Shown here in pieces: positions 39,761-53,559 of a stretch of DNA of 64,000 nucleotides. The notes beneath the pieces are model-generated. The model did no database searches. It saw nothing but the letters and a program-made list of their open reading frames with translations, and was not told the origin of the DNA. Numbering within the stretch: the stretch's first letter is position 1; every line of letters begins with the position of its first letter. Made by a program: the position numbers and the translations under genes. This stretch comes from Thermoanaerobaculia bacterium (lineage in GTDB: Bacteria > Acidobacteriota > Thermoanaerobaculia > Multivoradales > Multivoraceae). Location of the stretch: the NCBI GenBank assembly GCA_963666565.1, contig OY762911.1:2022797-2086796 (forward strand). The letters run 5' to 3'.

Positions 39761-39890
39761 CGCCGCCGACCGCCGCGCATGCCGGGTCCGTTGACGGCGA
39801 AGAACTGCGGCATATCTGCGCTCGCCAATGCTCAGGCCGAGCTACCAGTCATGCGCCAGGTTCCAGCCAGCTCCAGCGAGTCGTAGTCCT

Positions 39891-40877
39891 TCATCGCCTG
39901 GCCCGAAGCGGCCTGAAGAACAACTCCAGTTCGTTGACCTTCTCCTTGCGGGGCAACCTGAGTGTTCCACTGTCCAGGATACTCCCGGTGACCTCGATCG
40001 CGTAGACGCCGAACACATCGTCGTCTTCGACGTCGATGTCAACCACACTGATCAAGAGCGTGTCGCCTTCGTAGACCTTCACGAGCGTGCCGGACCGACG
40101 GAAGTTGTACCGGCCTGACTTCCTGGATCGCTCGGGTGTTCGCCCCCGGACAAGCCGCTCGACGCAGGCCAGTTCTAGCCTGTACCGTCCTGAGGCCGCG
40201 TTCAACATGGATTGCTGAATCGGTATCTCGTACCTTCGAGCCCTCTCGGCATCGGACAGCGGTGGGCTTGGCTTGCGCTTGCTGGCCTCATCCTTCGCTT
40301 CGAGCTCGGTGAGTTCCGTTTCGCGTAACGACACTTCGGCGGAGCTGAGTTGCAGCCTGCCTTCCGAGTACGCCTGCGTTTCGGACTTCAGTTGGTTCAT
40401 CCGCGTGCGCTCGCTCTCGGTTAGTGGCAGCTTCGGCTTTGACAGCTCGTCCTTCTGGACGAGTGCCGACAGCTCGGCCTGGAGGCGCTCCACCCTTGCG
40501 GCGATCTCCGCCAGACCGGTGCCGAGGTCGTCGACCAGCCCTTCCATCCTCAGGTCCTGGCGTTCCACGCGCACCTGGACGTCGGCCCCACTCAGGAAGT
40601 CCATCGCGCTTTGGCCTGAAACGCTGAGAGCGCCAACGCCCAGGCCATGGGCGCGGCTGGTTGGCAGGAGGTCGGAAGCCGACTCGCAAGAAGGCGGATC
40701 GAGCGGCACCGGCTCTTGTTGCAGAGACCAGGCTGGACCGCCAGCGAGAACTCCAAGACTGACCGCGATGAGGAACCGCGCCGGATCGACCGACCGCCAA
40801 GCTGCGACTGCCGGAGCGCCCCGGTGGCGGCTCCGCACCCGCTGTCGCGCACTCTCTTTCCCCATTCTGGCGGTCAC
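39891..40877 (-). CDS. Hypothetical coiled-coil protein with PL(S/T)(D/E)xExxR repeats and a conserved C-terminal VYEGD...FRP domain (paralog of 43199-44629)
   Basis: Lower-GC region; clear similarity to the downstream paralog in the coiled-coil, repeat and C-terminal roughly 65 aa regions. Confidence 0.5.
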   Translation of the reverse strand: MTARMGKESARQRVRSRHRGAPAVAAWRSVDPARFLIAVSLGVLAGGPAWSLQQEPVPLDPPSCESASDLLPTSRAHGLGVGALSVSGQSAMDFLSGADVQVRVERQDLRMEGLVDDLGTGLAEIAARVERLQAELSALVQKDELSKPKLPLTESERTRMNQLKSETQAYSEGRLQLSSAEVSLRETELTELEAKDEASKRKPSPPLSDAERARRYEIPIQQSMLNAASGRYRLELACVERLVRGRTPERSRKSGRYNFRRSGTLVKVYEGDTLLISVVDIDVEDDDVFGVYAIEVTGSILDSGTLRLPRKEKVNELELFFRPLRARR

Positions 40878-41035
40878 GACTCTTCTGTCTCCTCGGCCTT
40901 GAGCGGCGCCGAGATGCGGAGAACAGCGGCGCCGGTGTCGTCCGTTGTCTCAACCTCGCATCTGGTGGGCGTTGCATCGGCTGAGGCAAGGCTGATTGTC
41001 GATCCCATGGAGAGATCACTCTAACCTGAGAACGG

Positions 41036-41067
41036 GCTTGTAGTAGCGAGCAAGAACGTGTAGCTGG
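41036..41067 (-). promoter_or_regulatory. Conserved upstream motif CTTGTAGT-N14-ACGTGTAGC (copy 1)
   Basis: About 80 percent identical to 49099-49130; both lie about 150-200 bp upstream of minus-strand gene starts in the accessory cluster; coordinates approximate. Confidence 0.35.
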
Positions 41068-41158
41068 CCGATCGGCCTGGGTCGCTCAAGGGTCTCGTCC
41101 GGGATCGTGACCTTCCCCCGGCGAAGCTAGGGGAACGCGTGCGCGGGGAACGGGTCGC

Positions 41159-41503
41159 CTACTGGCACGGAAACGCCGTGATGTCCGACTTCGTGGTGGC
41201 GGTCGCGCCCTGCGGGTTGCCGTGCGTCCAGCGGCTGCCGTCGGGTCCCGTAATCCACAGGTTGAAGTCCAGGGTCGTCACCGGCGCCACGAACGCCCAG
41301 CGGTGGCCGTTGACTTGGCAACCGTCGAGCACCTTGACGAGAACCTCGGGGTTGTTGCGGCCGAAGAACCACAGAATGCCGGCCTCGCTGGACCAGGCTT
41401 CGGCCTTGACCGGGCCCGACTCGCCCTCTTGCGTGACGTAGCACATGCTGACCTCGAAGCCGCCGTCGAAGCGGAGGGCCACGGTCGTGGGCGTGCAGGT
41501 GCC
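41159..41503 (-). repeat. Dispersed about 340 bp repeat copy 1 (encodes the shared four-Cys domain)
   Basis: About 80 percent nucleotide identity to 44893-45231 and 48054-48392. Confidence 0.7.
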
Positions 41504-43060
41504 GACGGGATCCTCGGCCGGTCCGGAATCCGGGTCCGGGTCGGGGTCCGGATCCGGATCGGGCGAAGGCGTTCGCGGGCGTCTGTCGGCGAAACCGTCC
41601 TTGATCCAGTCGAACACCTTCGTGTTGGCCACGGTGCCGCGCACGTTCTCCGACGTGCGGCCGACCGCGTAGATCATCACGTCTTCGCCGGCGTGGGTCT
41701 CCAGGAACAGCGGGACCGTCGCCTCCTGCCGATATGCCGTGTGGCTGGTGCTCGTGGGAACGGCGCCGCCGCGGCCCGGCGTCCTGTCGCTGTTCGGATT
41801 GACCCGCGAACCGCTCCGGTGGCCCGGCCCGTTGGCGTAGCCCAGGATGGTGTAGGGAATGCCCCCCGAGTCGCCGCTCTCCGAGATCGTGCCGCCGCTG
41901 TCTATGTCGTGAACCGTTCCCAGGATGCCGTTGTGCGGCTGGTTGCGGAACGACGCGGGCACCGAGCGGGGGCTGTAGCGCAGGTCGCCGAGCGGCCGCA
42001 TCGGGTAGCCGGCGATCGTGAAGACGTGGCTGTGGTCCGCGGTCGCGAGGATCAGCGTCCTGTTGAGATTGACGCTCCGCTGCGCGGCGGCGATCGCTCG
42101 ATCGAACATCCGGGTGTCGGTGAAGGCGCGATAGGCGTTCCCCTCGTGGTGCGCGTGGTCGATCCGTCCCCCTTCGACCATCAGGAAGTACGGCTTTCCC
42201 GTGGCGGCGAGAATCTGGATCGCCTTCCTCGTCATCTCCTCCAGGCTCGGCTCGCCGCTGTCCCGGTCCGTTTCGTACTCCAGATGACTCGACGCGAACA
42301 GGCCGATCGCGCGGCCGGAACCGCCCAGCGAGTTGAGTCCCTGCCGGTTCCAGACGTAGCGGTAGCCCCGCTCTCGCAGTTCGTTTCGCAGATCGCGGCC
42401 GTCCGATCGGCTCCCTGGAAGTCCCTCGTCGTCCGATGCGGAAGTGGGAAGGAAGTGCCGTCGGCCGCCTCCGAAGACGACGTGGAGGCCCTGTCCGAGG
42501 CGGTCGTTGTATCCGCCGCCGCCCGGCGTCATCTGCCTGGCGATCTCGTTCTCCAGGTTGCGGTCGTTGACGTGCCCGAAAACGGCCGCCGGCGTCGCGT
42601 GGGTGACCCGCGTCGTCGTCACGATGCCCACTGCGTAGCCCATCGATATGGCCAGTTCGCCGATGTTGGTCAGCCTCGCGCTGTTGCCGTTGCCGTTGAA
42701 GTCCGCGTACTCGGTGGCCGGGCCGTAGCCGATCACGCCCGTGTTCGTGTTGACGCCGGTCATCATCGCCGACATCGTGGCGGCGCTGTCGGGGGTGATG
42801 TAGTCGGCCGACGCCGTGCGCGAGATGGCGGTGTAGGGCATGCGGTCGAGCGCCAGTTGCCCGTCGACGCCGACCGTCGCGATGCGGGTGGACGTGACGG
42901 TCGACACCCCCATGCCGTCGCCGACGAACAGGATGACGTTGTTCCTCTGCGCGGCCGCGGGCAGTGCCGCCGCCAGCAGGAGTGCGATGGTTGAGAGAGT
43001 GCTCAACGACGGGACGAGATTTCCGCGCACGCTTCCGATCTGCACGACACGACTCTTCAT
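41159..43060 (-). CDS. Alkaline phosphatase (PhoA family) fused via a (PD)n linker to a C-terminal roughly 114 aa four-cysteine domain
   Basis: Signal peptide; PhoA motifs (VGDGMG, TDSAATMSA, DHAHHEGN, ADHSH); linker PSPDPDPDPDPDPD; C-terminal domain shared with two neighbouring genes. Confidence 0.8.
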   Translation of the reverse strand: MKSRVVQIGSVRGNLVPSLSTLSTIALLLAAALPAAAQRNNVILFVGDGMGVSTVTSTRIATVGVDGQLALDRMPYTAISRTASADYITPDSAATMSAMMTGVNTNTGVIGYGPATEYADFNGNGNSARLTNIGELAISMGYAVGIVTTTRVTHATPAAVFGHVNDRNLENEIARQMTPGGGGYNDRLGQGLHVVFGGGRRHFLPTSASDDEGLPGSRSDGRDLRNELRERGYRYVWNRQGLNSLGGSGRAIGLFASSHLEYETDRDSGEPSLEEMTRKAIQILAATGKPYFLMVEGGRIDHAHHEGNAYRAFTDTRMFDRAIAAAQRSVNLNRTLILATADHSHVFTIAGYPMRPLGDLRYSPRSVPASFRNQPHNGILGTVHDIDSGGTISESGDSGGIPYTILGYANGPGHRSGSRVNPNSDRTPGRGGAVPTSTSHTAYRQEATVPLFLETHAGEDVMIYAVGRTSENVRGTVANTKVFDWIKDGFADRRPRTPSPDPDPDPDPDPDSGPAEDPVGTCTPTTVALRFDGGFEVSMCYVTQEGESGPVKAEAWSSEAGILWFFGRNNPEVLVKVLDGCQVNGHRWAFVAPVTTLDFNLWITGPDGSRWTHGNPQGATATTKSDITAFPCQ

Positions 43061-43198
43061 GGCCCAGACCCTCCTTCGTTGGTGCCCGGCCCCGGCAAGG
43101 GGCTTCATCGTCGGGATCGCGCCGCTCTTCAGCCGACCCGATGCCGACTCTTCCAACGATGGTAGTGGACTTGGCCTCAATCGGAGACTCGGCGGCCC

Positions 43199-44629
43199 CT
43201 ACCGAAGAGCGCCGGGCCGGAACTTCAACTCCACGTACTCCACGTCCGTCATGCGGGCGCGGAGAACTCCCTCTTCAAGCGTCCGACGATCGAGGACGAC
43301 CGTCGTCCTGCCGTAGAGGTCGTCGTACAAGACGTCCGCGTCCCAGACCTCGACGTCCAGTTCGTCTCCCTCGTAGACGGTGAGGATCTCGCGGTCGCCG
43401 AAGTTCACCACGGGACTCGACGTCTCCACCTTGCGCGTCCGAGCCGAGAGCAGGGCATCGAGCCGAGCCTGCTCCTCCTGCGCTTCGGCCCTCTCCTGCT
43501 GCAGGGTGCCGAGGTTCGCGGTCAGAGCCGTGAGGCGGACGGACTCCGACTCGGTCAGCGGGTCACCGGGAACGACTTCGCTTTCCGCCTTCCGCTCGGT
43601 CAGGTACTCAAGTTCGCGGCACATCGCGCACCGTGGGCAGGGATCCCGTTCGTCGAACGGGCTGCACGCCGCGCAGGCGGTCTCCGTGTAGACGGCGCAC
43701 GAGTGCGACACTTCGGCATCGAGTTCCCGCAGCCGTGCCAACTGGGTGTCGCTGAGAGGATCGCCGACAGCGACCTTGCTGGCCGTGTCCCTGGCCTCGA
43801 GTACTTCCAGTTCCGCCACGACCGCAGCTTGTTCCTCGGCCAACTCCGCCACCCTGCCGCCCAGCCAGTCCATAGCTCCCTGGATCTCGGGAACGTGCCG
43901 CCGGACCTGCACGAACGGATCGGGGTCCGAACTGGAGTCCTGGCGGTGCTTCCTGACGCGCATGACGCCGACGGAAAGGATGTACGGCGCCCGGCGATCC
44001 GGGCTGGCCACGCCCGGGCCACACGCCTTCTCTCCCTCGGTCGCGGGGTGCAGAGTCGAAGCGTGAACCCATCCGCGAGTGATGGGATCGTCGCCCAGAC
44101 GGGCCGAGGACGGTGCCGGATTCCGCGGCCCATGGTGTGCGGCATACAGCCAGCAGTTCCGCCTTTCGCGGACGTACACGAGTTGATCGTTGGAGGCTTG
44201 GAAGTCCATGGCGGCCGCGGCATGAGCCGGCGCTCGCCGGAAAGGCGCGCCCTCGCTCAGCATGCCGATGCGTAGCCATTCGTGGCGTTGTTTCAACTCC
44301 GCGGACAAGCCGCTGGTGTCCAGCACGCTTCGGCAGCCGGGCAACTCGTCCCGAGCGAACCGCAGATGGACACGCTCGCCGAGGAACTCAAGGACGCCCG
44401 AGGCTTCGCTCTCGCCCCGGGAAAGTGCTTCGGGATCGGACGACGCTTCGATCCGGAAACGTGGCGTCCGGCCTCGTCTCGTTTCCTCGCCAGCGAAGAA
44501 AAAGGAGCAGCCGAACTGCGGAAACGATGCCGAGCCGTTGCCGATCCGGAACTGCTCGTGGTAGCCCGTCAGCGAGCCGCTGGCCGGGTCGAAGGCGATC
44601 ACGGTGTCTCCGTCGTTACCCGGCACCAC
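43199..44629 (-). CDS. Hypothetical protein: N-terminal unknown domain, CxxC/CPRC zinc-ribbon-like motif, coiled coil, PL(S/T)(D/E) repeats, C-terminal VYEGD...FRP domain
   Basis: Paralog of 39891-40877; GTG start per the ORF track; no signal peptide evident. Confidence 0.5.
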   Translation of the reverse strand: MVPGNDGDTVIAFDPASGSLTGYHEQFRIGNGSASFPQFGCSFFFAGEETRRGRTPRFRIEASSDPEALSRGESEASGVLEFLGERVHLRFARDELPGCRSVLDTSGLSAELKQRHEWLRIGMLSEGAPFRRAPAHAAAAMDFQASNDQLVYVRERRNCWLYAAHHGPRNPAPSSARLGDDPITRGWVHASTLHPATEGEKACGPGVASPDRRAPYILSVGVMRVRKHRQDSSSDPDPFVQVRRHVPEIQGAMDWLGGRVAELAEEQAAVVAELEVLEARDTASKVAVGDPLSDTQLARLRELDAEVSHSCAVYTETACAACSPFDERDPCPRCAMCRELEYLTERKAESEVVPGDPLTESESVRLTALTANLGTLQQERAEAQEEQARLDALLSARTRKVETSSPVVNFGDREILTVYEGDELDVEVWDADVLYDDLYGRTTVVLDRRTLEEGVLRARMTDVEYVELKFRPGALR

Positions 44630-44766
44630 CTGCGCCCACGAGGGCGCCGCGAACGGCAGTGCCGAAGCGAAGAGGGCAAGGAACCCGCGCCAGACTGAAC
44701 GGCCGTACTCGGAGCCAGTGAACGTGCTTGACGGCCGCGGTCGGTCGTGGTGGTTGTCCGGGAGTA

Positions 44767-47340
44767 TCAGGGCACTCTCTCCCCTCGTTCCGACTGCGCC
44801 GAGATGCGAAGAACCGCGGCGCCGGTGTTGCCCGTCACATCCACTTTCCCGTCATCATCGCCGTCCCCGTCGTCGTCATCATCCTCGTTCGCGCACTGGA
44901 ACGCGTTCGTGTCGCTCCTGGTCGAGGCCGTCTGGCCTTGCCGATTGCCGTGCGTCCACCGGGTGCCGTCCGGGCCCGTTATCAAGAGATTGAACTCCAG
45001 GGTCGTGACCGGCGCCACGAACGCCCAGCGGTGTCCGTTGTGCTTGCAGCCGTCGAGCACCTTGACCAGAACTTCCGCGTTGCCCCGGTCGAAGAACCAC
45101 AGGATGCCGGACTGGCCGGATGCCCAGACGCCGGACCTGGCCTGGCCCCCGTCTCCGTCGGGCGTGCGGTAGCACATGCTGACCTTGTAGCCGCCGTCGA
45201 ACTGAAGCGCGGTCGTCGTCGGCCTGCAGCCCATGGTCGGCGGAGCTGGGCGGTCACCTTCCCGAACCACGCGGATGTCGTGACCGGAAGGCGCCAGCAC
45301 CAACTCGTAGCGGTTGCCCCGCCAGGTGAACGGCCTGTCGGGGAGGAGCGCACCAGGCCTCGTCCTGTTTCCGTCCACGTCTTCGGTGAAGTCGCACTCG
45401 TTCAGCCAGCCGTTCCGGTCGAGGTCGAGGCAGACGAAGTCCTTGTCGTCCTCGGGCAGCGCGTCAGATGGGGAGTCGAACCGTCCGTCGCCGTTCCCAT
45501 CGACAGCCAGCGCCAGCAGCCGCCCTCCCGACGGCAGCTCGACTTCGCCCCTCCAGACGCTGGACGGGCCGTACACGAGACCGTTCGACAAGTCGCCGCG
45601 CTGGGCGGACATCGTAATGGCGTAGGGCAGGACCAGCCCCGACGCATAGGGCACTTCCAGAACCGCCCCGGTTGTCCCCACAGCCCACGGACGCTCCGTG
45701 TTCCACGCCGTGAGCAGCGGCGGTCCGTCGTCGGTGAGATTTCGGTTCCTGTTCCGATCAACCCAAACGCGGATGAACCGGTTCTGGAAGTACGACGAGT
45801 AGTACCCACTCGCCGCGAACCGTTCGACATCGCAAAGCTGAGGCAGGAGCACCGTCGGGCAGGACTCGGGTCTCCTATGGCTGTCGACGAGGATCTCGAA
45901 CCGGCCTCCCGCGTCTCCAAGCTCAAGAAACTGGTAGGACGCCGAGTCTCCCCGAACTGCCGGATAGACCACGTCGGATGGCCGACTTGCATGAACCTGT
46001 ACCCGCTGAGTGATGTGGAGGCCGGTGTAGCCGCTCAGCCTGCCGTTTCGGCTCACGAAGGCGAGTCCGCGGCCGTCCGTGTTGTCGTCCATCCGGTCCC
46101 CGATGCCGTCGCCGTCCGTGTCCCGCTGCTCCCGCGGGTTCAGAGGGAAGGCGTCCGCGGCGTTACTCACGCCGTCGCCGTCGGCGTCCCGGTCCAGTGC
46201 GTCGGCGATGCCGTCACCGTCCGTATCGCGCCAGTCTCGGTGGTCCAGAGGCAGAGCGTCGATGAAGTCCGGTGCTCCGTCGCCGTCGTCGTCAAGGTCG
46301 GTCCGATTCGGCGTGCCGTCGCCGTCAGTGTCGTTCGCGGTCCCTGGGCGCGCCAGCGCGGCGCCGGACGACAGCCACTCGAAGATCTCTCTCGGGGGCG
46401 TGTCGCCAGACGAGCAGTGACCGCCGGGCGCATCCAGATCCGCGCGGGTTTCCAGGCCCAGCCAGTCTGAGTAGTACCTCGCCATCGACTCGGCGTCCTG
46501 ATGCAGGAAGTCTCCCGTCGTGGCTTCCACGAACACGCGAAAGCGCTCCCTCACGAACTGGGCGGCGAATGGGGTCCACTGAAACGAGGGCCTCCACGGT
46601 GCGTGGTGGAACGGCGGAGCGACGGCGTAGGTGTCGTGCGAGGCGTCGCCGTCGAAATCCAGCCAGAAGCACCCGCAATGCGCGTGAAAGCCACCGCCGT
46701 AGCTGCCGCCGTAGAACTCCATGAACTGCGCCAGGAAGCAAGTGCCCTGGGAGCCGCCGGCGAAGACGATTCGGTCGTGGTCGAGAGCAAGCCGCGACTT
46801 CAGGTTGTTCTGGAGCAGTTCATGGATCAGGCGCGCGTCTTCGCCTTGCCAGAACCGGGTTCCTCCCGCGCCGACTGCTTCGGGGAGCAACGTGCGTTCA
46901 CCGAATGAGATCTCCTCCGGCACCGAGTTGGGAGACGCCGGCACGATCAGCGCCAGCCCAAGATCCAGAGCCGTATCGACGTGCTGGTACCTGGGCTGCC
47001 GCAGCTCCTCGGCCGTTCCCCTGTTGTTCCCGTGGAAGAAAACGACCGCTCCGCGAGGCGTCGTCGGATCCCAGCCGCTCCTCACCCAGTACCGGTAGAG
47101 GAGAGTCCGGCCGGTGGAATCGGTGAACGAGTCATCGTGCCATACCGTGGACTGCCCTTGGACGGCGCCGGAAGCGGCGAGGAGCGCAACTGTCAGCGCC
47201 CAACGTCGTCGTCCGAGTCTCCGAGTCAGCGCCTGCCGGGAGAGTCGCATCAGTTCTGCACAGTCCGCCAGGGTCGTCCCCATCGCTTGTTCTCTCACCT
47301 TTTGCCGCCCTTCGATGGATGCACGGGATTCAACTCGCAC
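44767..47340 (-). CDS. Secreted multidomain protein: alpha/beta-hydrolase (GGSQG serine esterase), thrombospondin type-3 Ca-binding repeats, unknown middle region, shared four-Cys domain, acidic tail
   Basis: Signal peptide; VVFFHGNN...FAGGSQGTCF; DTDGDGxxD TSP3 repeats x4-5; C-terminal domain about 90 percent identical to that of 47388-48953. Confidence 0.65.
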   Translation of the reverse strand: MRVESRASIEGRQKVREQAMGTTLADCAELMRLSRQALTRRLGRRRWALTVALLAASGAVQGQSTVWHDDSFTDSTGRTLLYRYWVRSGWDPTTPRGAVVFFHGNNRGTAEELRQPRYQHVDTALDLGLALIVPASPNSVPEEISFGERTLLPEAVGAGGTRFWQGEDARLIHELLQNNLKSRLALDHDRIVFAGGSQGTCFLAQFMEFYGGSYGGGFHAHCGCFWLDFDGDASHDTYAVAPPFHHAPWRPSFQWTPFAAQFVRERFRVFVEATTGDFLHQDAESMARYYSDWLGLETRADLDAPGGHCSSGDTPPREIFEWLSSGAALARPGTANDTDGDGTPNRTDLDDDGDGAPDFIDALPLDHRDWRDTDGDGIADALDRDADGDGVSNAADAFPLNPREQRDTDGDGIGDRMDDNTDGRGLAFVSRNGRLSGYTGLHITQRVQVHASRPSDVVYPAVRGDSASYQFLELGDAGGRFEILVDSHRRPESCPTVLLPQLCDVERFAASGYYSSYFQNRFIRVWVDRNRNRNLTDDGPPLLTAWNTERPWAVGTTGAVLEVPYASGLVLPYAITMSAQRGDLSNGLVYGPSSVWRGEVELPSGGRLLALAVDGNGDGRFDSPSDALPEDDKDFVCLDLDRNGWLNECDFTEDVDGNRTRPGALLPDRPFTWRGNRYELVLAPSGHDIRVVREGDRPAPPTMGCRPTTTALQFDGGYKVSMCYRTPDGDGGQARSGVWASGQSGILWFFDRGNAEVLVKVLDGCKHNGHRWAFVAPVTTLEFNLLITGPDGTRWTHGNRQGQTASTRSDTNAFQCANEDDDDDGDGDDDGKVDVTGNTGAAVLRISAQSERGERVP
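44893..45231 (-). repeat. Dispersed about 340 bp repeat copy 2
   Basis: About 95 percent nucleotide identity to 48054-48392. Confidence 0.75.
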
Positions 47341-47387
47341 AGAGCCTCTGTCGGGTCGTCGTCATGCGGCGGCTCCCTCGCGGCCCT

Positions 47388-48953
47388 CTACCTCCTGGTC
47401 TCTACCCAGGTACCGGCCGTAACCGTTCTCCCTTCGATCCGGCAGGTGCTCGCGTCGCATGTGTACCGATAGGGACGCCTCTCGACGTAGCCGTTCCGAG
47501 AACAGCGCACGTTCGTTTTGCCACCGGAGTTGCTGAGGGAACACCTCGACAACCCGCCGTTGAGGCTCCACGAATCCGAGGGCAACGTCGTAATGACGTC
47601 ACCGACGTTGTACCTGGTTCCCGACCCGCCGCCGCCGCTGACCGTCACGCGGACGCCGCTGGAACAGTTGTTGCCGGTGTTCGATTCGCCCGACACGGAA
47701 TCCACGCAGGCGCCGTAGTAGTACGTGCCCGCGCTGGACGGCGCCGTCAGGCTGATCGACTCGGCACTGGAGCTCGAGGCGGAGAGGACACCGACCGAAT
47801 CCGTGCCGACCTGCGTGTCGGAGGTGCCGATGCTGGAGTTCGACGAGCGGTAGTAGCGCAGCGTCGTGGCGGCGGAGCGACCGTCGCCCTGGTTGCGCAC
47901 CGTGGCGCGGAGCGTGAAGCGGTCGCCCGCGCTGAGGCTGCTGTCGCTGACCGACGGGCTCGACACCACGAGGTCGGGCGCCGACGTTGGTTCGTCATCG
48001 TCCCCGTCATCATCACTGTCGTCCCCGTCATTGTCGTCATCACCATCGGTCGCGCAAGCGAACGCTCTGTTGTCGCTCTTGGTCGAAGCCGTCTGGCCTT
48101 GCCGGTTGCTGTGCGTCCACCGCTTGCCGTCCGGTCCCGTGATCCAGAGGTTGAACTCCAGGGTCGTGACCGGCGCCACGAACGCCCAGCGGTGTCCGTT
48201 GTGTGTGCAACCGTCGAGCACTTTGACCAGAACTTCCGCGTTGCCCCGGTCGAAGAACCACAGGATGCCGGACTGGCCGGATGCCCAGACGCCGGACTTC
48301 GCCTGGCCCACGTCCCCAGCGGGCGTGCGGTAGCACATGCTGACGTCGTAGCCGCCGTCGAAGCGGAGCGCCGTTGTCGTGGGCCTGCAGCCTGCGGTTG
48401 GCGGGGGGTCGGGATCGGGATCCGGCGGCTGACTTTCTTCGGACGTTGCGCGCACTTCGCATCCGGTGGGCGTTGCTCCAGAGACCGTCCCGGTCATGTG
48501 GAAGGTCCTGGTCTGGTTGGCCTCCATCCTCCCGAGGAGCTGATTGCCTATCTGGCGCCGCCCCGGCTCGATATAGCCCCGTACCCTGACGTTCCTGACG
48601 GACCGTTGGGCCGTCACGCTCCCGCCGATGGTCGCGTTCCAGGTGCTGCCGGCGGTCTGGTCAGCCCTGCAGGTCGTGACGCGGCCGGTCAAGGCCGGGC
48701 CGGACGCTGCTGCATGGACGGATTCGGTGTCACCGGCGGCGGCATTGACGAACACCGTGCTCGGTGCGGCGTGCAGAGGCACTTCCCAGGCAACAAGTTC
48801 CCGGTCCTGCTGAGCGGCCGATGGCGCCGAAACGGCCATGGTCAACGCCATCAGCGTCAGCAGGACGGCGGGTCGAGGAACGCGAACGCCTCCGGCTCCG
48901 TTCCCTCCGCGGGTCTGGCGCTTCTGGCTCGGGCCGATCATTGTGTTGTTCAT
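47388..48953 (-). CDS. Secreted multidomain protein: unknown N-domain, PDPDPD linker, shared four-Cys domain, poly-acidic linker, CARDB-like domain, Cys-containing C-terminal domain
   Basis: Signal peptide; CARDB-like region LVVSSPSVSDSSLSAGDRFTLRATVRNQGDG; shared domain GCRPTTTALRFDGGYDVSMCY...AFAC. Confidence 0.6.
   Translation of the reverse strand: MNNTMIGPSQKRQTRGGNGAGGVRVPRPAVLLTLMALTMAVSAPSAAQQDRELVAWEVPLHAAPSTVFVNAAAGDTESVHAAASGPALTGRVTTCRADQTAGSTWNATIGGSVTAQRSVRNVRVRGYIEPGRRQIGNQLLGRMEANQTRTFHMTGTVSGATPTGCEVRATSEESQPPDPDPDPPPTAGCRPTTTALRFDGGYDVSMCYRTPAGDVGQAKSGVWASGQSGILWFFDRGNAEVLVKVLDGCTHNGHRWAFVAPVTTLEFNLWITGPDGKRWTHSNRQGQTASTKSDNRAFACATDGDDDNDGDDSDDDGDDDEPTSAPDLVVSSPSVSDSSLSAGDRFTLRATVRNQGDGRSAATTLRYYRSSNSSIGTSDTQVGTDSVGVLSASSSSAESISLTAPSSAGTYYYGACVDSVSGESNTGNNCSSGVRVTVSGGGGSGTRYNVGDVITTLPSDSWSLNGGLSRCSLSNSGGKTNVRCSRNGYVERRPYRYTCDASTCRIEGRTVTAGTWVETRR
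48054..48392 (-). repeat. Dispersed about 340 bp repeat copy 3
   Basis: See copies 1 and 2. Confidence 0.75.
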
Positions 48954-49098
48954 GGTGACCGTGTCTCCTTGGTCCGGTTGGCCGCCAGGTCTCCTGCCCT
49001 TCCGCCGTCAACACCCGGCGATTTGCCGCGACGGACGCGCGCTTCGCGTTTACCGAAGACGCGCTCTTCATCATGCTCGTCAGCCTACGACGGACGCG

Positions 49099-49130
49099 GC
49101 TTGTAGTGCCGAGGAGAAACGTGTAGCCGG
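49099..49130 (-). promoter_or_regulatory. Conserved upstream motif CTTGTAGT-N14-ACGTGTAGC (copy 2)
   Basis: Upstream of the first gene of the minus-strand cluster (start 48953); see copy 1. Confidence 0.35.
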
Positions 49131-49151
49131 TCGCGGTGGCGCGGCAGCCGG

Positions 49152-51845
49152 TCAGGAGTCGCCGGGGATCAGGCCCATGTCCCAGGCCCGCCGGACGGCC
49201 TCCGCCCGATTGCGGGTGCCGAGCTTGGCGAAGATGCTCCGCAGGTTGTACCTCACGCCATGCGTCGTCAGACCCAGTTCGGCGGCGATCTCCTTGTCGC
49301 GGCGACCCGGCAACCGGTGCAGCACTTCAAGTTCGCGCTCGCTGAGCGACGGCGCCGAACCATCGTCCGCGTCGCACATCGCCAGGAGCGAACGGGCGGC
49401 TGGCCGGTGGGAGGCGTCCGCGCCGAGCTCGAGGTACATCCGCAACGCGTCCGCGCAGGTTGCCTGGTCCCGCACCAGGGGCCAGGCGTAGGGCGACTCG
49501 ACGAACAGCCTTAGGTACTCCGTCAGATGCCGCAGGCTCGCCTGGGTGTCGCCGGCCTGCTGTTCCAGCGAGACGGACAGCGCCAGGGCGCGCATCTCGA
49601 CGGTGCGGAGGCCCAGCTCGGCCGCAACCGAGCGTAGCCGGCGCAGCAACGAGCGCCCTTCCTCCCACCGTCGGCCCGCGATCGACAATCGGGCGCGAGC
49701 TTCCGAAACGGCCTCCATTTCCCTCCAGCTCTGAGCCGTCAGATCCACGCAGTCCTCAGGCTCCTCCGGCAACGCCTCCCGCCGCCAGGCGCGCTCGGCT
49801 TCCGTCGTGCGGCCGGCGATCGCCAGCACCGATATCCGGAGCGCGACGATCAGTCTCAGGAAGGCGGTCAATCCGGCCCTGCGTGAACGAAGCACCAGCT
49901 TGTCTGCCACGGCGAGAGCCTCTTCGACCTGTCCGGACCCGAGTCTGGCGCCGATCAACACGTTGCTGGCCGTTGCGAAGTACGAGAAGGGCACGCCGTG
50001 GCGCGTCAACACGCTCAGTACGCCGGGCGGGTTGGCGGCTGCCGAAGCCGGGTTGCATTCCAGGGCGATTTCGTGCCGCACGAGATCGCAGCTCGTGGTC
50101 GCCGTGGGATCGAGCATGAAGCACTTCCTGGCAATCCGCCGTGCTCTGCGGCAGTGTGCCCGGGCGTCCCGTGGCCGGCCCCTCACGAAGTCGATCTGGC
50201 CATGCAGGATTCCTCCGTACAGCGCGATGTAGTCGGTACCGGTGGACTCGAGCGCCGCGGAGAGCGTGTCGAGAGCGTCGGCGAACTCTCCCTTCAGAAA
50301 GTGGAGGATGCACAGCCCGTACTCGAACCCGCCGCGCTTGGCCGGGGCCAGATCCGCATCCGCCGTCAGCCGGGCGATGTCGCGAAGCAGGGCCTCCGAC
50401 GAGTCCGACCCGACGGGAGATATCCCGTACAGGGCCAGGCAGAAGCGAGCGGTGAGATGCTCCAGGCGGTAGCGGAAGTCGTCCTCGTCGTCGCTGGCGG
50501 GGACAGGACGGGGACACGTCCGGTAGAGATCCCGAGCTTGGTCGCCACGTCCGGTAAGCGCCAGCGTGACGCATCTGAGGAGCTTGAGTCGCGGCGATTC
50601 GGCGACGACAGCCTCGCTCAACAGGCGGTTCGCTTGCTGCAACTCCGGGACGCCGTTGCGCATCCACAAGCGTACCCCGCCCGCCTGTTCGGCAATCCGA
50701 CCGGCGAGGAACGGATCGCGCCCCTCGATCGCGTGGCGCATGGCCGCTATCGTCTCGCGGCGTTTCGCCAGGGCGGCGGCGATGCGCCGATGGATGGCGG
50801 CGAAGCGTTCCGGGTCTTCGCGAAGCCGCCTGGCGGCGCAGTGCTCTCGCACCAGCGGATGCAGCCGCCAGCGCCGGGTTTCGCCGTCGCTCAGCGGCTC
50901 AAGCAGCCCGGTCAGCGCGGCCATCGACTCGAAGCGGCGCATCGAGTCGTTTCGTTGCAGGACTTCGTCCAACAGCGCCGCGTCGGTCCAGTCGAGCAGG
51001 GACATGTCCAGAACGAAGTCCCGGTCGCCGCGCCCGAGAGGCGCGAACAGGCGGGACTCGATCCAGTTTCCGAGGAAGCCATGCCCACTGTCGCGGTCGT
51101 CGTGCGCTTCGTGTTGCATACCGTTGCGGGCAATGCGCAGTGCGACCGGCCATCCGGCTGAACGGTCGATCTCTCTCGCCAGGGCTCGGCGGGAAAGGCG
51201 GAGACCGAAGAACCTGGCCACCTCCGCTCGGGAGAACCTCAGGTCTTCGGTTTCCACGGCCTCCGCGTGGCCCGCCAGCAGGGGACTGGCCACATCGAGG
51301 CCGTCCGGGATCTCCCGGCCCGCCAAAGCCAGGTGCAGATTGGAGGGGCCGCGTTGCAGGAGCAACGTCAGGAGCGGGACGGAGGCGGGATTCAGACGCT
51401 CCAGCTCGTCGAACGCAATGACGAAGGGTCTTCCGAGGGACTCGATTCCGTGCAGAACGGTGCCGATCCGGCTCGCCGGTCCAGCGCGCGTTTCCCTCAC
51501 GGGCGGCACGTCGCCCAGGTTCAACCCGGCCTCGGCGCAGGCGAAGGCGATGTAAACGTCGAGTACGCCGGGCTCGTCGTTCTCGTCCAGCGAAATCCAG
51601 GCCGTGGCGACCCCGTCCCGGCGGACTCGGCGGCAGCACTCCGCCATCAGGGTCGTCTTCCCGAAACCGCCGGAGGCCCTCAGCACCGAGAGCTTGCGGC
51701 GCGTGGGCAGCGCCCGCTTCTCGAGTTCCGGCCGGCTGAGGTAGCCGGCCACCCTGTCCGGGATCGCGACCTTCCGCCGCAGCAGCCAAGGGAACGCGCG
51801 CGCGGGGAAGGACTCCGCGGGCATTCCTCGCGACGCTCCGGTCAT
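49152..51845 (-). CDS. Large ATP-binding LuxR-family transcriptional regulator (LAL / MalT-like)
   Basis: N-terminal P-loop (GGFGKTTL), long helical/TPR-like middle, C-terminal LuxR HTH (LSERELEVLHRLPGRRDKEIAAELGLTTHGVRYNLRSIFAKLG). Confidence 0.8.
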   Translation of the reverse strand: MTGASRGMPAESFPARAFPWLLRRKVAIPDRVAGYLSRPELEKRALPTRRKLSVLRASGGFGKTTLMAECCRRVRRDGVATAWISLDENDEPGVLDVYIAFACAEAGLNLGDVPPVRETRAGPASRIGTVLHGIESLGRPFVIAFDELERLNPASVPLLTLLLQRGPSNLHLALAGREIPDGLDVASPLLAGHAEAVETEDLRFSRAEVARFFGLRLSRRALAREIDRSAGWPVALRIARNGMQHEAHDDRDSGHGFLGNWIESRLFAPLGRGDRDFVLDMSLLDWTDAALLDEVLQRNDSMRRFESMAALTGLLEPLSDGETRRWRLHPLVREHCAARRLREDPERFAAIHRRIAAALAKRRETIAAMRHAIEGRDPFLAGRIAEQAGGVRLWMRNGVPELQQANRLLSEAVVAESPRLKLLRCVTLALTGRGDQARDLYRTCPRPVPASDDEDDFRYRLEHLTARFCLALYGISPVGSDSSEALLRDIARLTADADLAPAKRGGFEYGLCILHFLKGEFADALDTLSAALESTGTDYIALYGGILHGQIDFVRGRPRDARAHCRRARRIARKCFMLDPTATTSCDLVRHEIALECNPASAAANPPGVLSVLTRHGVPFSYFATASNVLIGARLGSGQVEEALAVADKLVLRSRRAGLTAFLRLIVALRISVLAIAGRTTEAERAWRREALPEEPEDCVDLTAQSWREMEAVSEARARLSIAGRRWEEGRSLLRRLRSVAAELGLRTVEMRALALSVSLEQQAGDTQASLRHLTEYLRLFVESPYAWPLVRDQATCADALRMYLELGADASHRPAARSLLAMCDADDGSAPSLSERELEVLHRLPGRRDKEIAAELGLTTHGVRYNLRSIFAKLGTRNRAEAVRRAWDMGLIPGDS

Positions 51846-51888
51846 TCGGCGATCTTACCGGGGACGCCTACTGCTAGATTGCCCGCCC

Positions 51889-53559
51889 ATGAGCGACTGG
51901 CATCACGCGGACATTCTCGAAGCGATCGCCCGGCACCAGCCGGAGGCGCCGGCGCAAGCCTTCGTCGATCCCCTGGGCGGCGAACCGGCGCGCCGCTACT
52001 CGCAGGCCGAGCTGCACCGTCGCGCGAACGGCGTCGCGGCGACGCTGATCGCGCGCGGCGCGAAGCGCCAGGACAAGGTTGCACAGTACCTCTACAACGT
52101 GCCGGAGTACCTGGAGTCCGTCCTCGCCTGCTTCAAGGCGTCGCTGGTGCCGGTGAACACGAACTACCGCTACGTGGAGAGCGAGCTCCTCTACCTGTGG
52201 GACAACGCCGACGTCGTGGCGGTTGTCTTCCACGGCTGCTTCGCCTCGCGGATCGCGGACCTGCGGGCGAAGATGCCGGCGATCCACACTTGGCTGTGGG
52301 TCGACGACGGCTCGGGTCCCTGCCCCGAGTGGGCGATCCCCTACGAGCAGGCGGCCGCCGCGGCGTCCGGCGAGCCCGGCGACTCGCTGGCCTTCGAGGC
52401 GCCTTGGCCGCGCAGCGGCGACGATCTGTGGCTGCTCTACACCGGCGGCACGACCGGCATGCCGAAGGGCGTCATGTGGCGGCTCGACGACCTCTGGCTG
52501 CTCGGCAACGAAGGCCGGCCCGAGCCGTTCGACCTCTCGGGCGGCGTCGAGGGCCTCGTGCCCCAGTTCGACGAACTCCTCATGCGGCGCGTCTCGCTTC
52601 CCGCCTGCCCGCTGATGCACGGCACCGGCTTCCTCACCGCGCTCGGCGGCATGTTGAACGGCGGCACGGTGATCACCCTGGCCAACCGCCGCTTCGACGC
52701 GGTCGCGACCCTCGAGGCGATCACCGGCGAGAAGATCAACGGGATGGCGATCGTCGGCGACGCGTTCGCCAGGCCGATGGTGCGGGCGCTGGAGGCGGAA
52801 CCGGACCGCTTCGATCTCTCCAGCCTGGAGGCCGTCGTCTCCTCCGGCGCGATGTGGAGCGCCGAGGTCAAGCGGGCCTTCCTGCGGTTCTGCCCGCCGG
52901 AGACGATCCTGACGGACAGCCTCGGGTCGTCCGAGTCGATCGGCATGGGCCGTTCGGACTCGACCGCCGGCGAGGAGAGCGAAACGGCCTCCTTCGTGCT
53001 CGGCGACAACGCCTGCGTCATCGACGACGACGGCAACAAGGTCGAACCGGGCTCGGGCGTGCTCGGCCGCATCGCCGTGACCGGTCACATCCCGCTCGGC
53101 TACTACAAGGACCCCGAGAAGACCGCGGCCATATTCACCGAAGTCGACGGCGTCCGCTACTCGATGGCGGGCGACTACGCCACCGTCGAGGCGGACGGCT
53201 CCCTCAAGCTCTACGGCCGCGGCTCCGTGTGCATCAACAGCGGCGGCGAGAAGATCTTCCCCGAGGAGGTCGAGGAAGTGCTGAAGACCCACCCTTCGGT
53301 CCGCGACGCGGTGTGCGTCGGCGTGCCGGACGAGCGCTTCGGTCAGGCGGTGACGGCGGTCGTCGAGCTGGACGACGCCGCCCGCTTCAGCGAGCCGGAC
53401 GTCATCGGCTGGGTCAAGCGGGAACTGGCGTCCTACAAGGCGCCCAAGCGCGTCCTGGTGCGGGACAGCGTGGGCCGGGCCGCGAACGGCAAGGCCGACT
53501 ACAACGGCCTGCGCGAGTGGGCGGTCGGCGAGCTCGCCGCGGGCGAGGCGGCGCCGTGA
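51889..53559 (+). CDS. Acyl-CoA synthetase (AMP-dependent synthetase/ligase)
   Basis: LYTGGTTGMPKGV AMP-binding motif; C-terminal GEKI and K..PK motifs. Confidence 0.85.
   Translation: MSDWHHADILEAIARHQPEAPAQAFVDPLGGEPARRYSQAELHRRANGVAATLIARGAKRQDKVAQYLYNVPEYLESVLACFKASLVPVNTNYRYVESELLYLWDNADVVAVVFHGCFASRIADLRAKMPAIHTWLWVDDGSGPCPEWAIPYEQAAAAASGEPGDSLAFEAPWPRSGDDLWLLYTGGTTGMPKGVMWRLDDLWLLGNEGRPEPFDLSGGVEGLVPQFDELLMRRVSLPACPLMHGTGFLTALGGMLNGGTVITLANRRFDAVATLEAITGEKINGMAIVGDAFARPMVRALEAEPDRFDLSSLEAVVSSGAMWSAEVKRAFLRFCPPETILTDSLGSSESIGMGRSDSTAGEESETASFVLGDNACVIDDDGNKVEPGSGVLGRIAVTGHIPLGYYKDPEKTAAIFTEVDGVRYSMAGDYATVEADGSLKLYGRGSVCINSGGEKIFPEEVEEVLKTHPSVRDAVCVGVPDERFGQAVTAVVELDDAARFSEPDVIGWVKRELASYKAPKRVLVRDSVGRAANGKADYNGLREWAVGELAAGEAAP

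Follow-up and report, generated by a model that had tools for sequence, protein, structure and literature searches.

An alkaline phosphatase of a Thermoanaerobaculia bacterium is joined through a Pro/Asp-rich linker to a four-cysteine beta domain of a large family

The phosphatase locus

We analyzed 64,000 nucleotides of the genome of a Thermoanaerobaculia bacterium (Acidobacteriota; assembly GCA_963666565.1, contig OY762911.1, positions 2,022,797 to 2,086,796 of the forward strand), a stretch referred to here as the window. On its reverse strand lies a gene for an alkaline phosphatase whose product continues, behind the catalytic core, into a Pro/Asp-rich linker and a compact domain with four cysteines (Table 1). 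The phosphatase itself is an ordinary member of family PF00245. The four-Cys domain, found three times within 7 kb of the window by tblastn, belongs to a very large family that is found in predicted exported proteins, with many unrelated partners, and we favor, with moderate confidence, its being a module that binds or retains exoenzymes outside the cell.

Table 1. Features of the phosphatase locus, in window coordinates (ORF, open reading frame; aa, amino acids)
Feature	Position	Strand	Description
Alkaline phosphatase ORF	41159..43060	-	633 aa; ATG at 43060, TAG stop at 41159-41161; no internal stop
Shine-Dalgarno sequence GGAGG	43070..43074	-	9 nt 5' of the ATG; direct sequence reading
Putative signal peptide, aa 1-37	42950..43060	-	hydrophobic core LSTIALLLAAALPAAA, A-A-A/Q cleavage-type site; sequence reading
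Alkaline phosphatase catalytic core, aa 38-492	41585..42949	-	PF00245 match, 1zeb relative
Disordered Pro/Asp-rich linker, aa 493-519	41504..41584	-	contains the (Pro-Asp)6 tract, 41528-41563
Four-Cys all-beta domain, aa 520-633 (114 aa)	41162..41503	-	Cys522, Cys540, Cys581, Cys632; motif WFF..N.E..VKVLDGC..N...W.F
Second domain copy	44893..45240	-	tblastn 67% identity, E 5e-52; near the C terminus of the 857-aa ORF, acidic tail after it
857-aa ORF	44767-47340	-	alpha/beta-hydrolase-like N terminus, thrombospondin type-3 repeats (TSP_3)
Third domain copy	48054..48389	-	tblastn 71% identity, E 2e-53; internal to the 521-aa ORF
521-aa ORF	47388-48953	-	PDPDPD at 48408-48425 before the domain; Asp-rich tract and CARDB after it
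CARDB domain PF07705	47658-47981	-	E 2.6e-13; aa 325-432 of the 521-aa protein
Two paralogous proteins, function unassigned	39891-40877 and 43199-44629	-	328 and 476 aa; 30% identity, E 5e-17
897-aa regulator	49152-51845	-	AAA_16, MalT-like tetratricopeptide repeat region, LuxR-type helix-turn-helix; adjoins three domain carriers

A predicted complete and exported phosphatase

The longest possible version of the phosphatase ORF begins with a TTG at 43180, upstream of the ATG. We prefer the ATG as the start, as did a preliminary description made from the letters of the window, because the GGAGG lies 9 nt upstream of it and because the closest ortholog (P0121), at 634 aa, agrees in length. The first 37 residues reach 2.4 in a 12-residue Kyte-Doolittle window and look like a Sec-type signal peptide, through which the phosphatase is probably exported; its putative cleavage site comes from a reading of the sequence.

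The Pfam model Alk_phosphatase (PF00245) matches residues 40 to 486 with an E value of 8.8e-102 (341.6 bits against a cut-off of 24.4; profile positions 2 to 417 of 423). Among solved structures, the core comes closest to the human placental enzyme 1zeb (E 1.7e-73) and to other placental, intestinal, and tissue-nonspecific alkaline phosphatases, with E values up to about 3e-65; E. coli PhoA is far more remote (E about 1e-27 to 1e-29). Catalytic residues were assigned by alignment to 1zeb. The nucleophile S92 (TPDSAAT, containing D-S-A-A-T) and R167 align with placental Ser92 and Arg166, and the ligands of the two-Zn/Mg set are present as D48, T156, E296, D301, H305, D342, H343, and H456. S92, R167, and all eight metal ligands are invariant in a 42-homolog alignment. 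Since all catalytic residues are present and invariant, the enzyme appears complete, in agreement with the full PhoA-family enzyme with metal and serine ligands reported in the preliminary description, and we predict a catalytically competent member of the placental-like branch of the PhoA family.

A disordered linker leads into a compact beta domain

In the full-length AlphaFold2 model, which is moderate overall (mean predicted local distance difference test [pLDDT], 68), the last core helix (residues 480 to 490) is followed by RRPRTPSPDPDPDPDPDPDSGPAEDP. Residues 493 to 517 have pLDDT values below 50, and the next 114 residues form a separate beta unit. Modeled alone from a 36-sequence alignment, this unit reaches a pLDDT of 96.8 and a predicted template modeling score of 0.89, with about 10 consecutive beta strands connected by short turns and one short helix. 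The preliminary description had the phosphatase extended by a (Pro-Asp)n linker, the stretch PSPDPDPDPDPDPDS, and the four-Cys domain; both tract and domain are present, and the models support a discrete domain behind a disordered linker.

Among 36 diverse members of the domain family, including all three copies of the window, F49, F50, N54, E56, K60, V61, L62, G64, C65, and W72 are invariant, and D63, N68, F74, T79, D110, A113, F114, and C116 are at least 90% conserved. The core of the domain thus consists of F-F, N-x-E, K-V-L-(D)-G-C, and a Trp, with A-F-x-C at the C-terminal end. A census of 583 unique copies revealed two mutually exclusive cysteine layouts, CC.CC in 313 copies and C.CCC in 185. 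They differ in the second Cys (columns 18 and 29 of the hidden Markov model), which lies on strand 1 in the former and on strand 2 in the latter. The window copies and the sponge-type copies have the minority layout, with the second Cys (Cys540 in the phosphatase) on strand 2, and the alternation looks like a disulfide that migrated to the neighboring strand. Mean-field covariation over the 583 copies was dominated by gap and shift artifacts, and the only usable signal was Cys65-Cys116 (domain numbering), the strongest and sole robust long-range pair, which joins the Cys of DGC to the C-terminal Cys. From these patterns, two disulfides are predicted, Cys581-Cys632 and Cys522-Cys540.

The domain found no Pfam match even at an E value of ≤10, and NCBIfam scans of the three window carriers (E ≤ 1) returned nothing over it and no Por_Secre_tail model. 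Remote typical members of the family likewise gave no Pfam or NCBIfam match across the domain region. A profile search of PDB sequences yielded a best hit of only E 0.22, and Foldseek against the PDB found nothing below E 0.35. The source annotations of the carriers name other domains only, or read "hypothetical," and a literature search returned nothing relevant on the KVLDGC motif or on "Candidatus Multivorans." Within the libraries covered (Pfam-A 2025, NCBIfam 20.0, and PDB sequences and folds), the domain is thus novel, as the preliminary description had proposed, and represents a very large unnamed family with no significant match among solved structures. One explanation of the domain would be a beta-meander or barrel that binds small molecules or lipids and that inserts into or binds the outer membrane, or delivers substrate. 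All the fold similarities were below significance, and we consider a barrel of this kind improbable.

The fusion is conserved and was acquired at the base of its clade

Linker and domain are present in about 35 ortholog clusters (78 to 96% identity, 620 to 644 aa) and in one additional cluster at 67%; the linker is P/D rich in all fusion-bearing clusters, and 10 species-representative genomes show the same architecture. The preliminary description had asked for a comparison with orthologs that lack the extension, and such homologs exist: the next-closest ones (64 to 67% identity, about 500 aa) end right after the catalytic core, and nearly all the more distant listed homologs (mostly about 490 to 515 aa) also have no extension. 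Because the homologs at 64 to 67% identity stop after the core, the fusion was acquired and is not ancestral. It is real, arose at the base of the clade, and was then kept. The preliminary description had further considered that orthologs might uniformly carry the extension as a known binding module; close orthologs are indeed uniformly extended, but in none of them is the extension annotated as a binding module.

A fusion of this type could in principle be an artifact of chimeric assembly, of a frameshift, or of readthrough from one gene into the next. One related genome (contig OZ244782, 3.7 Mb) does have a broken phosphatase gene, in which a frameshift separates P0157 (461 aa, with a frameshifted tail) from P0001 (164 aa), which holds the last part of the core together with linker and domain. 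The gene is a pseudogene there, or else the long-read assembly contains an indel. The continuous architecture, however, recurs in the approximately 35 independent clusters and in the 10 species-representative genomes, which come from different studies, and the window gene is a single ORF without internal stop whose domain is under purifying selection (see below). The conservation data thus exclude an artifact for practical purposes.

To compare the rates of the two parts, dN/dS (nonsynonymous over synonymous substitution rates) was estimated by the Nei-Gojobori method against the window gene, and amino acid differences were compared by Fisher tests. Close orthologs share 89 to 93% identity with the window protein in the core and 62 to 95% in the domain. 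In six of them (L001 to L006), the core has a dN of 0.04 to 0.07 and a dS of 0.32 to 0.39, and the domain has a dS of 0.23 to 0.29 and a dN/dS of 0.10 to 0.33, values that clearly point to purifying selection on the domain. In three others (L007, L008, and L012), core values are similar (dN, 0.06 to 0.07; dS, 0.33 to 0.40), whereas both rates are raised in the domain (dN, 0.21 to 0.23; dS, 0.49 to 0.70; Fisher P values, 4e-4 to 3e-5), reflecting either faster evolution or replacement by a paralog in one lineage. L080, the closest relative, differs from the window protein at 2 of 455 core residues and 6 of 114 domain residues (Fisher P = 0.001). Domain dN/dS ranges from 0.10 to 0.47 across orthologs. 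By these estimates, the module attached to the phosphatase evolves under purifying selection but at a rate uncoupled from that of the catalytic core. A neighbor-joining tree, made to see whether the phosphatase-attached domains are polyphyletic, hinted at two clades and thereby at replacement, but each of the two topologies had a bootstrap of only about 13%.

We also considered whether the three copies of the window had recently undergone gene conversion, which is unsupported. Their DNA identity averages only about 83% per column, their linkers are unalignable, and, by our reading, agreement with the paralogs is not consistent at the six positions where the phosphatase domain departs from its closest ortholog.

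A Pro/Asp tract that is probably not tied to the domain

At the DNA level, the Pro-Asp (PD) tract of the phosphatase is a hexanucleotide tandem repeat (Tandem Repeats Finder, period 6, about 7 copies, 41518 to 41560). Such a repeat agrees with the differing sequences and lengths of the linkers in orthologs, which are only 33 to 96% identical over 18 to 27 aligned positions. In all six frames of the window, only two PD repeats of at least three units occur. They lie directly upstream of the four-Cys domains of the phosphatase and the CARDB protein, where the preliminary description had noticed them. From this shared linker, it had suggested the shuffling of a linker-plus-domain cassette, which is supported only in part. 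The domain has many partners (see below), but the two PD linkers cannot be aligned at the DNA level outside the repeat itself, the copy in the 857-aa protein has no PD linker, and a PD/PE repeat precedes only 24 of 181 domain copies in related genomes. For these reasons, the PD tract looks like a lineage-typical, slippage-prone linker, often placed before single C-terminal copies, and not like an inherited part of the module.

Other low-complexity tracts accompany the domain. Directly after it, the 857-aa protein has the Asp-rich tract DDDDDGDGDDDG (44850 to 44888) and the 521-aa protein has the tract DGDDDNDGDDSDDDGDDDE (48005 to 48042). Encoded by imperfect 12- and 15-nt tandem repeats, they represent a second type of low-complexity acidic linker, which may bind cations. 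At five loci (L019, L023, L025, L030, and L059), single C-terminal copies come after a "...DDRAAVRYLYP" motif typical of the end of the matrixin (M10) catalytic domain and after a recurring "...AYFIRLGVDHGG" domain of unassigned type; (PD)n tracts, some as long as about 12 units, often join these copies.

A large family with many partners and flexible position

An exhaustive profile search of 1.84 billion cluster representatives recovered 10,309 proteins at E ≤ 1e-3, a family size that counts clusters at 50% identity, and 5,261 at E ≤ 1e-30. Among the best 150 representatives, 145 have two copies of the domain and 5 have four. The last copy sits at the extreme C terminus in 123 of these 150 proteins, and many loci have 0 to 2 residues beyond the last Cys; in 22, a pair of copies follows just after the N terminus, with 750 to 1,000 aa behind it. 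A hydrophobic segment is found at the N terminus of 108 of 135 full-length representatives and of all three window carriers, which, like the conserved Cys positions, speaks for an extracytoplasmic setting.

The strong C-terminal bias brings to mind the C-terminal domain of type IX secretion (Por_Secre_tail), which is likewise a small beta domain at the very C terminus and which, in a single phylum, is shared by numerous secreted enzymes and adhesins that are otherwise unrelated. The main rival to a binding or retention module is accordingly a C-terminal signal for secretion or surface attachment, recognized by a machinery and possibly cleaved, and the very broad set of cargo enzymes and the lineage-restricted expansion with many copies per genome would suit it as well. 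Unlike the type IX domain, which is strictly C terminal and single copy, the four-Cys domain also occurs in N-terminal and internal positions and usually in tandem: 150 of 150 proteins are multicopy, the N-terminal pairs are followed by 750 to 1,000 aa, and the copy in the CARDB protein of the window is internal. There is also no sequence match to Por_Secre_tail (Pfam PF18962, TIGR04183) or to any other sorting-signal model in Pfam and NCBIfam, the type IX domain belongs to Bacteroidota and ours to Acidobacteriota, and no dedicated machinery was identified. We therefore regard a sorting signal as possible, though on the unlikely side.

Partner domains assigned in 49 carriers include seven-bladed lactonase propellers, peptidases of families S8 (subtilases), M10, and M12, and fn3, PKD, beta-helix, sortilin/BNR, and laminin-G domains. 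Other carriers have M23, Calx-beta, or MG2 domains. With three different proteins in the window and thousands of architectures elsewhere, the domain is promiscuous. Its presence on secreted proteases (S8, M10, M12, and M23) and other hydrolases, together with the flexible linker that precedes it, could point to an intramolecular chaperone, a propeptide, or an oligomerization module of the pre-peptidase C-terminal (PPC) kind that is later removed or dispensable. The domain, however, is also carried by nonenzymatic PKD, fn3, and CARDB proteins and by stand-alone small proteins, and neither PPC (PF04151) nor another propeptide model matches it. Purifying selection in the phosphatase clade, comparable to that on the core, does not by itself favor a disposable part either, and to us the chance of such a role appears slim.

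A scan of one genome per species gave at least 562 encoded copies. The best 80 of these all come from metagenome-assembled genomes (MAGs) of Acidobacteriota labeled as Candidatus Multivorans, Thermoanaerobaculia, Holophagales, and Vicinamibacteraceae. Many of these genomes have more than one locus, and many loci contain more than one copy. Some isolate labels (RHO, COS, and SB06xx) resemble the MAG naming for the sponges Rhopaloeides, Coscinoderma, and Aplysina. These sponges were sampled in a study that recovered 97 Acidobacteriota MAGs (PMC8163846), to which the labels probably belong.

A candidate binding or retention module

We favor, with the moderate confidence stated above, a noncatalytic and position-independent module by which exoenzymes bind or are retained. 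The preliminary description had suggested that the domain may target the enzyme to the cell surface or to a substrate, which is plausible and agrees with our reading. This reading builds on a module that is predicted to be exported and disulfide stabilized and that is position tolerant, often duplicated, flexibly linked, and combined with many unrelated partners. The phosphatase, probably Sec exported, is joined at its C terminus, through a slippage-prone Pro/Asp linker, to a compact all-beta module with two predicted disulfides. In other members of the family, single copies or tandem pairs of the module accompany a wide range of unrelated, predicted exported enzymes and proteins resembling adhesins. 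The module would keep the enzyme attached to the cell envelope or to a polymer outside the cell, either the matrix of the cell itself or that of a host, so that the phosphate released would be captured near the cell.

Known systems offer parallels. The mammalian-type alkaline phosphatases (1zeb) have a nucleophile and metal-ligand set identical to that of the window core. A C-terminal glycosylphosphatidylinositol (GPI) anchor holds the mammalian enzymes on the outer face of the membrane, and by analogy with this tether through the C terminus, we propose that the window phosphatase may likewise be tethered C terminally. In contrast to them, it has no GPI signal but a putative Sec-type signal peptide and, behind the Pro/Asp linker, a folded 114-aa disulfide domain. 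E. coli PhoA and the bacterial PF00245 enzymes, periplasmic or exported, have the family and the catalytic residues in common with the window enzyme, but PhoA lacks a C-terminal accessory module. The four-Cys domain follows the same plan as the noncatalytic accessory modules of secreted hydrolases, such as carbohydrate-binding modules, PPC, PKD, and fn3, which are set apart by linkers, vary in position, are frequently present in duplicate, and occur with a wide choice of catalytic domains. It co-occurs with PKD, fn3, and CARDB, and its tandem copies would recall binding modules that act by avidity. No sequence-profile or fold membership in carbohydrate-binding, PPC, PKD, fn3, or Ig-like modules was found for it in Pfam, NCBIfam, and the PDB.

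Several points weigh against a binding or retention module. We infer binding from the architecture of the proteins alone. The preference for the extreme C terminus, where many loci end within 0 to 2 residues of the last Cys, is also compatible with a sorting signal. The list of the best 150 representatives is ranked by score and so favors multicopy proteins. Finally, our negative results cover Pfam, NCBIfam, and the PDB, and an annotated structural relative may exist in the AlphaFold database.

A more far-reaching proposal is that the domain serves as the recognition or attachment element of a lineage-specific system for displaying exoenzymes on the surface of Thermoanaerobaculia and Holophagales. 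The domain would then do the work that the C-terminal domain of type IX secretion or S-layer-homology anchoring does elsewhere, with an unseen fold, more than 10,000 cluster-level members, and fast evolution where it faces the host or the environment. We consider this proposal rather unlikely.

The design of an enzyme with an accessory module is familiar, and the interest lies in the module, a large family that is unnamed in the libraries searched, has no significant match among solved structures, and is heavily expanded in recovered acidobacterial MAGs, several of whose labels point to marine sponges. With a name and a ligand for the domain, thousands of "hypothetical" exoproteins could be annotated at once, and it would become clear how uncultured Acidobacteriota retain phosphatases, proteases, and lactonases on the cell surface or within the matrix of a host, with a bearing on phosphorus scavenging and host interaction.

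The phosphatase lies in a variable island

The phosphatase gene stands alone in L080, the closest relative, and in the species genomes L002, L005, L006, and L009, where it lies directly between the genes for an acyl-CoA synthetase and a fused isobutyryl-/methylmalonyl-CoA mutase. In the window, this slot (39800 to 51900) holds about 10 kb of additional genes, namely, two paralogs flanking the phosphatase, the two other domain carriers, and a MalT/LuxR-type regulator. A regulator of this type and extra four-Cys carriers are also found in the slot of L001, L003, L004, and L008, in differing orders, so that the subset of these genes varies from genome to genome. The slot is a variable island enriched in carriers of the four-Cys module.

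The 857-aa carrier has a GGSQG-type alpha/beta-hydrolase region with a weak match to extracellular polyhydroxyalkanoate depolymerase type 1 (E 0.0055), calcium-binding repeats of the thrombospondin type-3 kind, and, in front of the four-Cys domain, a long middle stretch without assignment. The two flanking paralogs, which have no Pfam or NCBIfam match and are both absent from this locus in L080, share coiled-coil-like repeats ("PLSD/E..R") and end in a "V.V.D.DV..DD..G" segment reminiscent of a C2-type beta domain. As for the 897-aa regulator, it may control the island, because it travels together with the carriers in L001, L003, L004, and L008.

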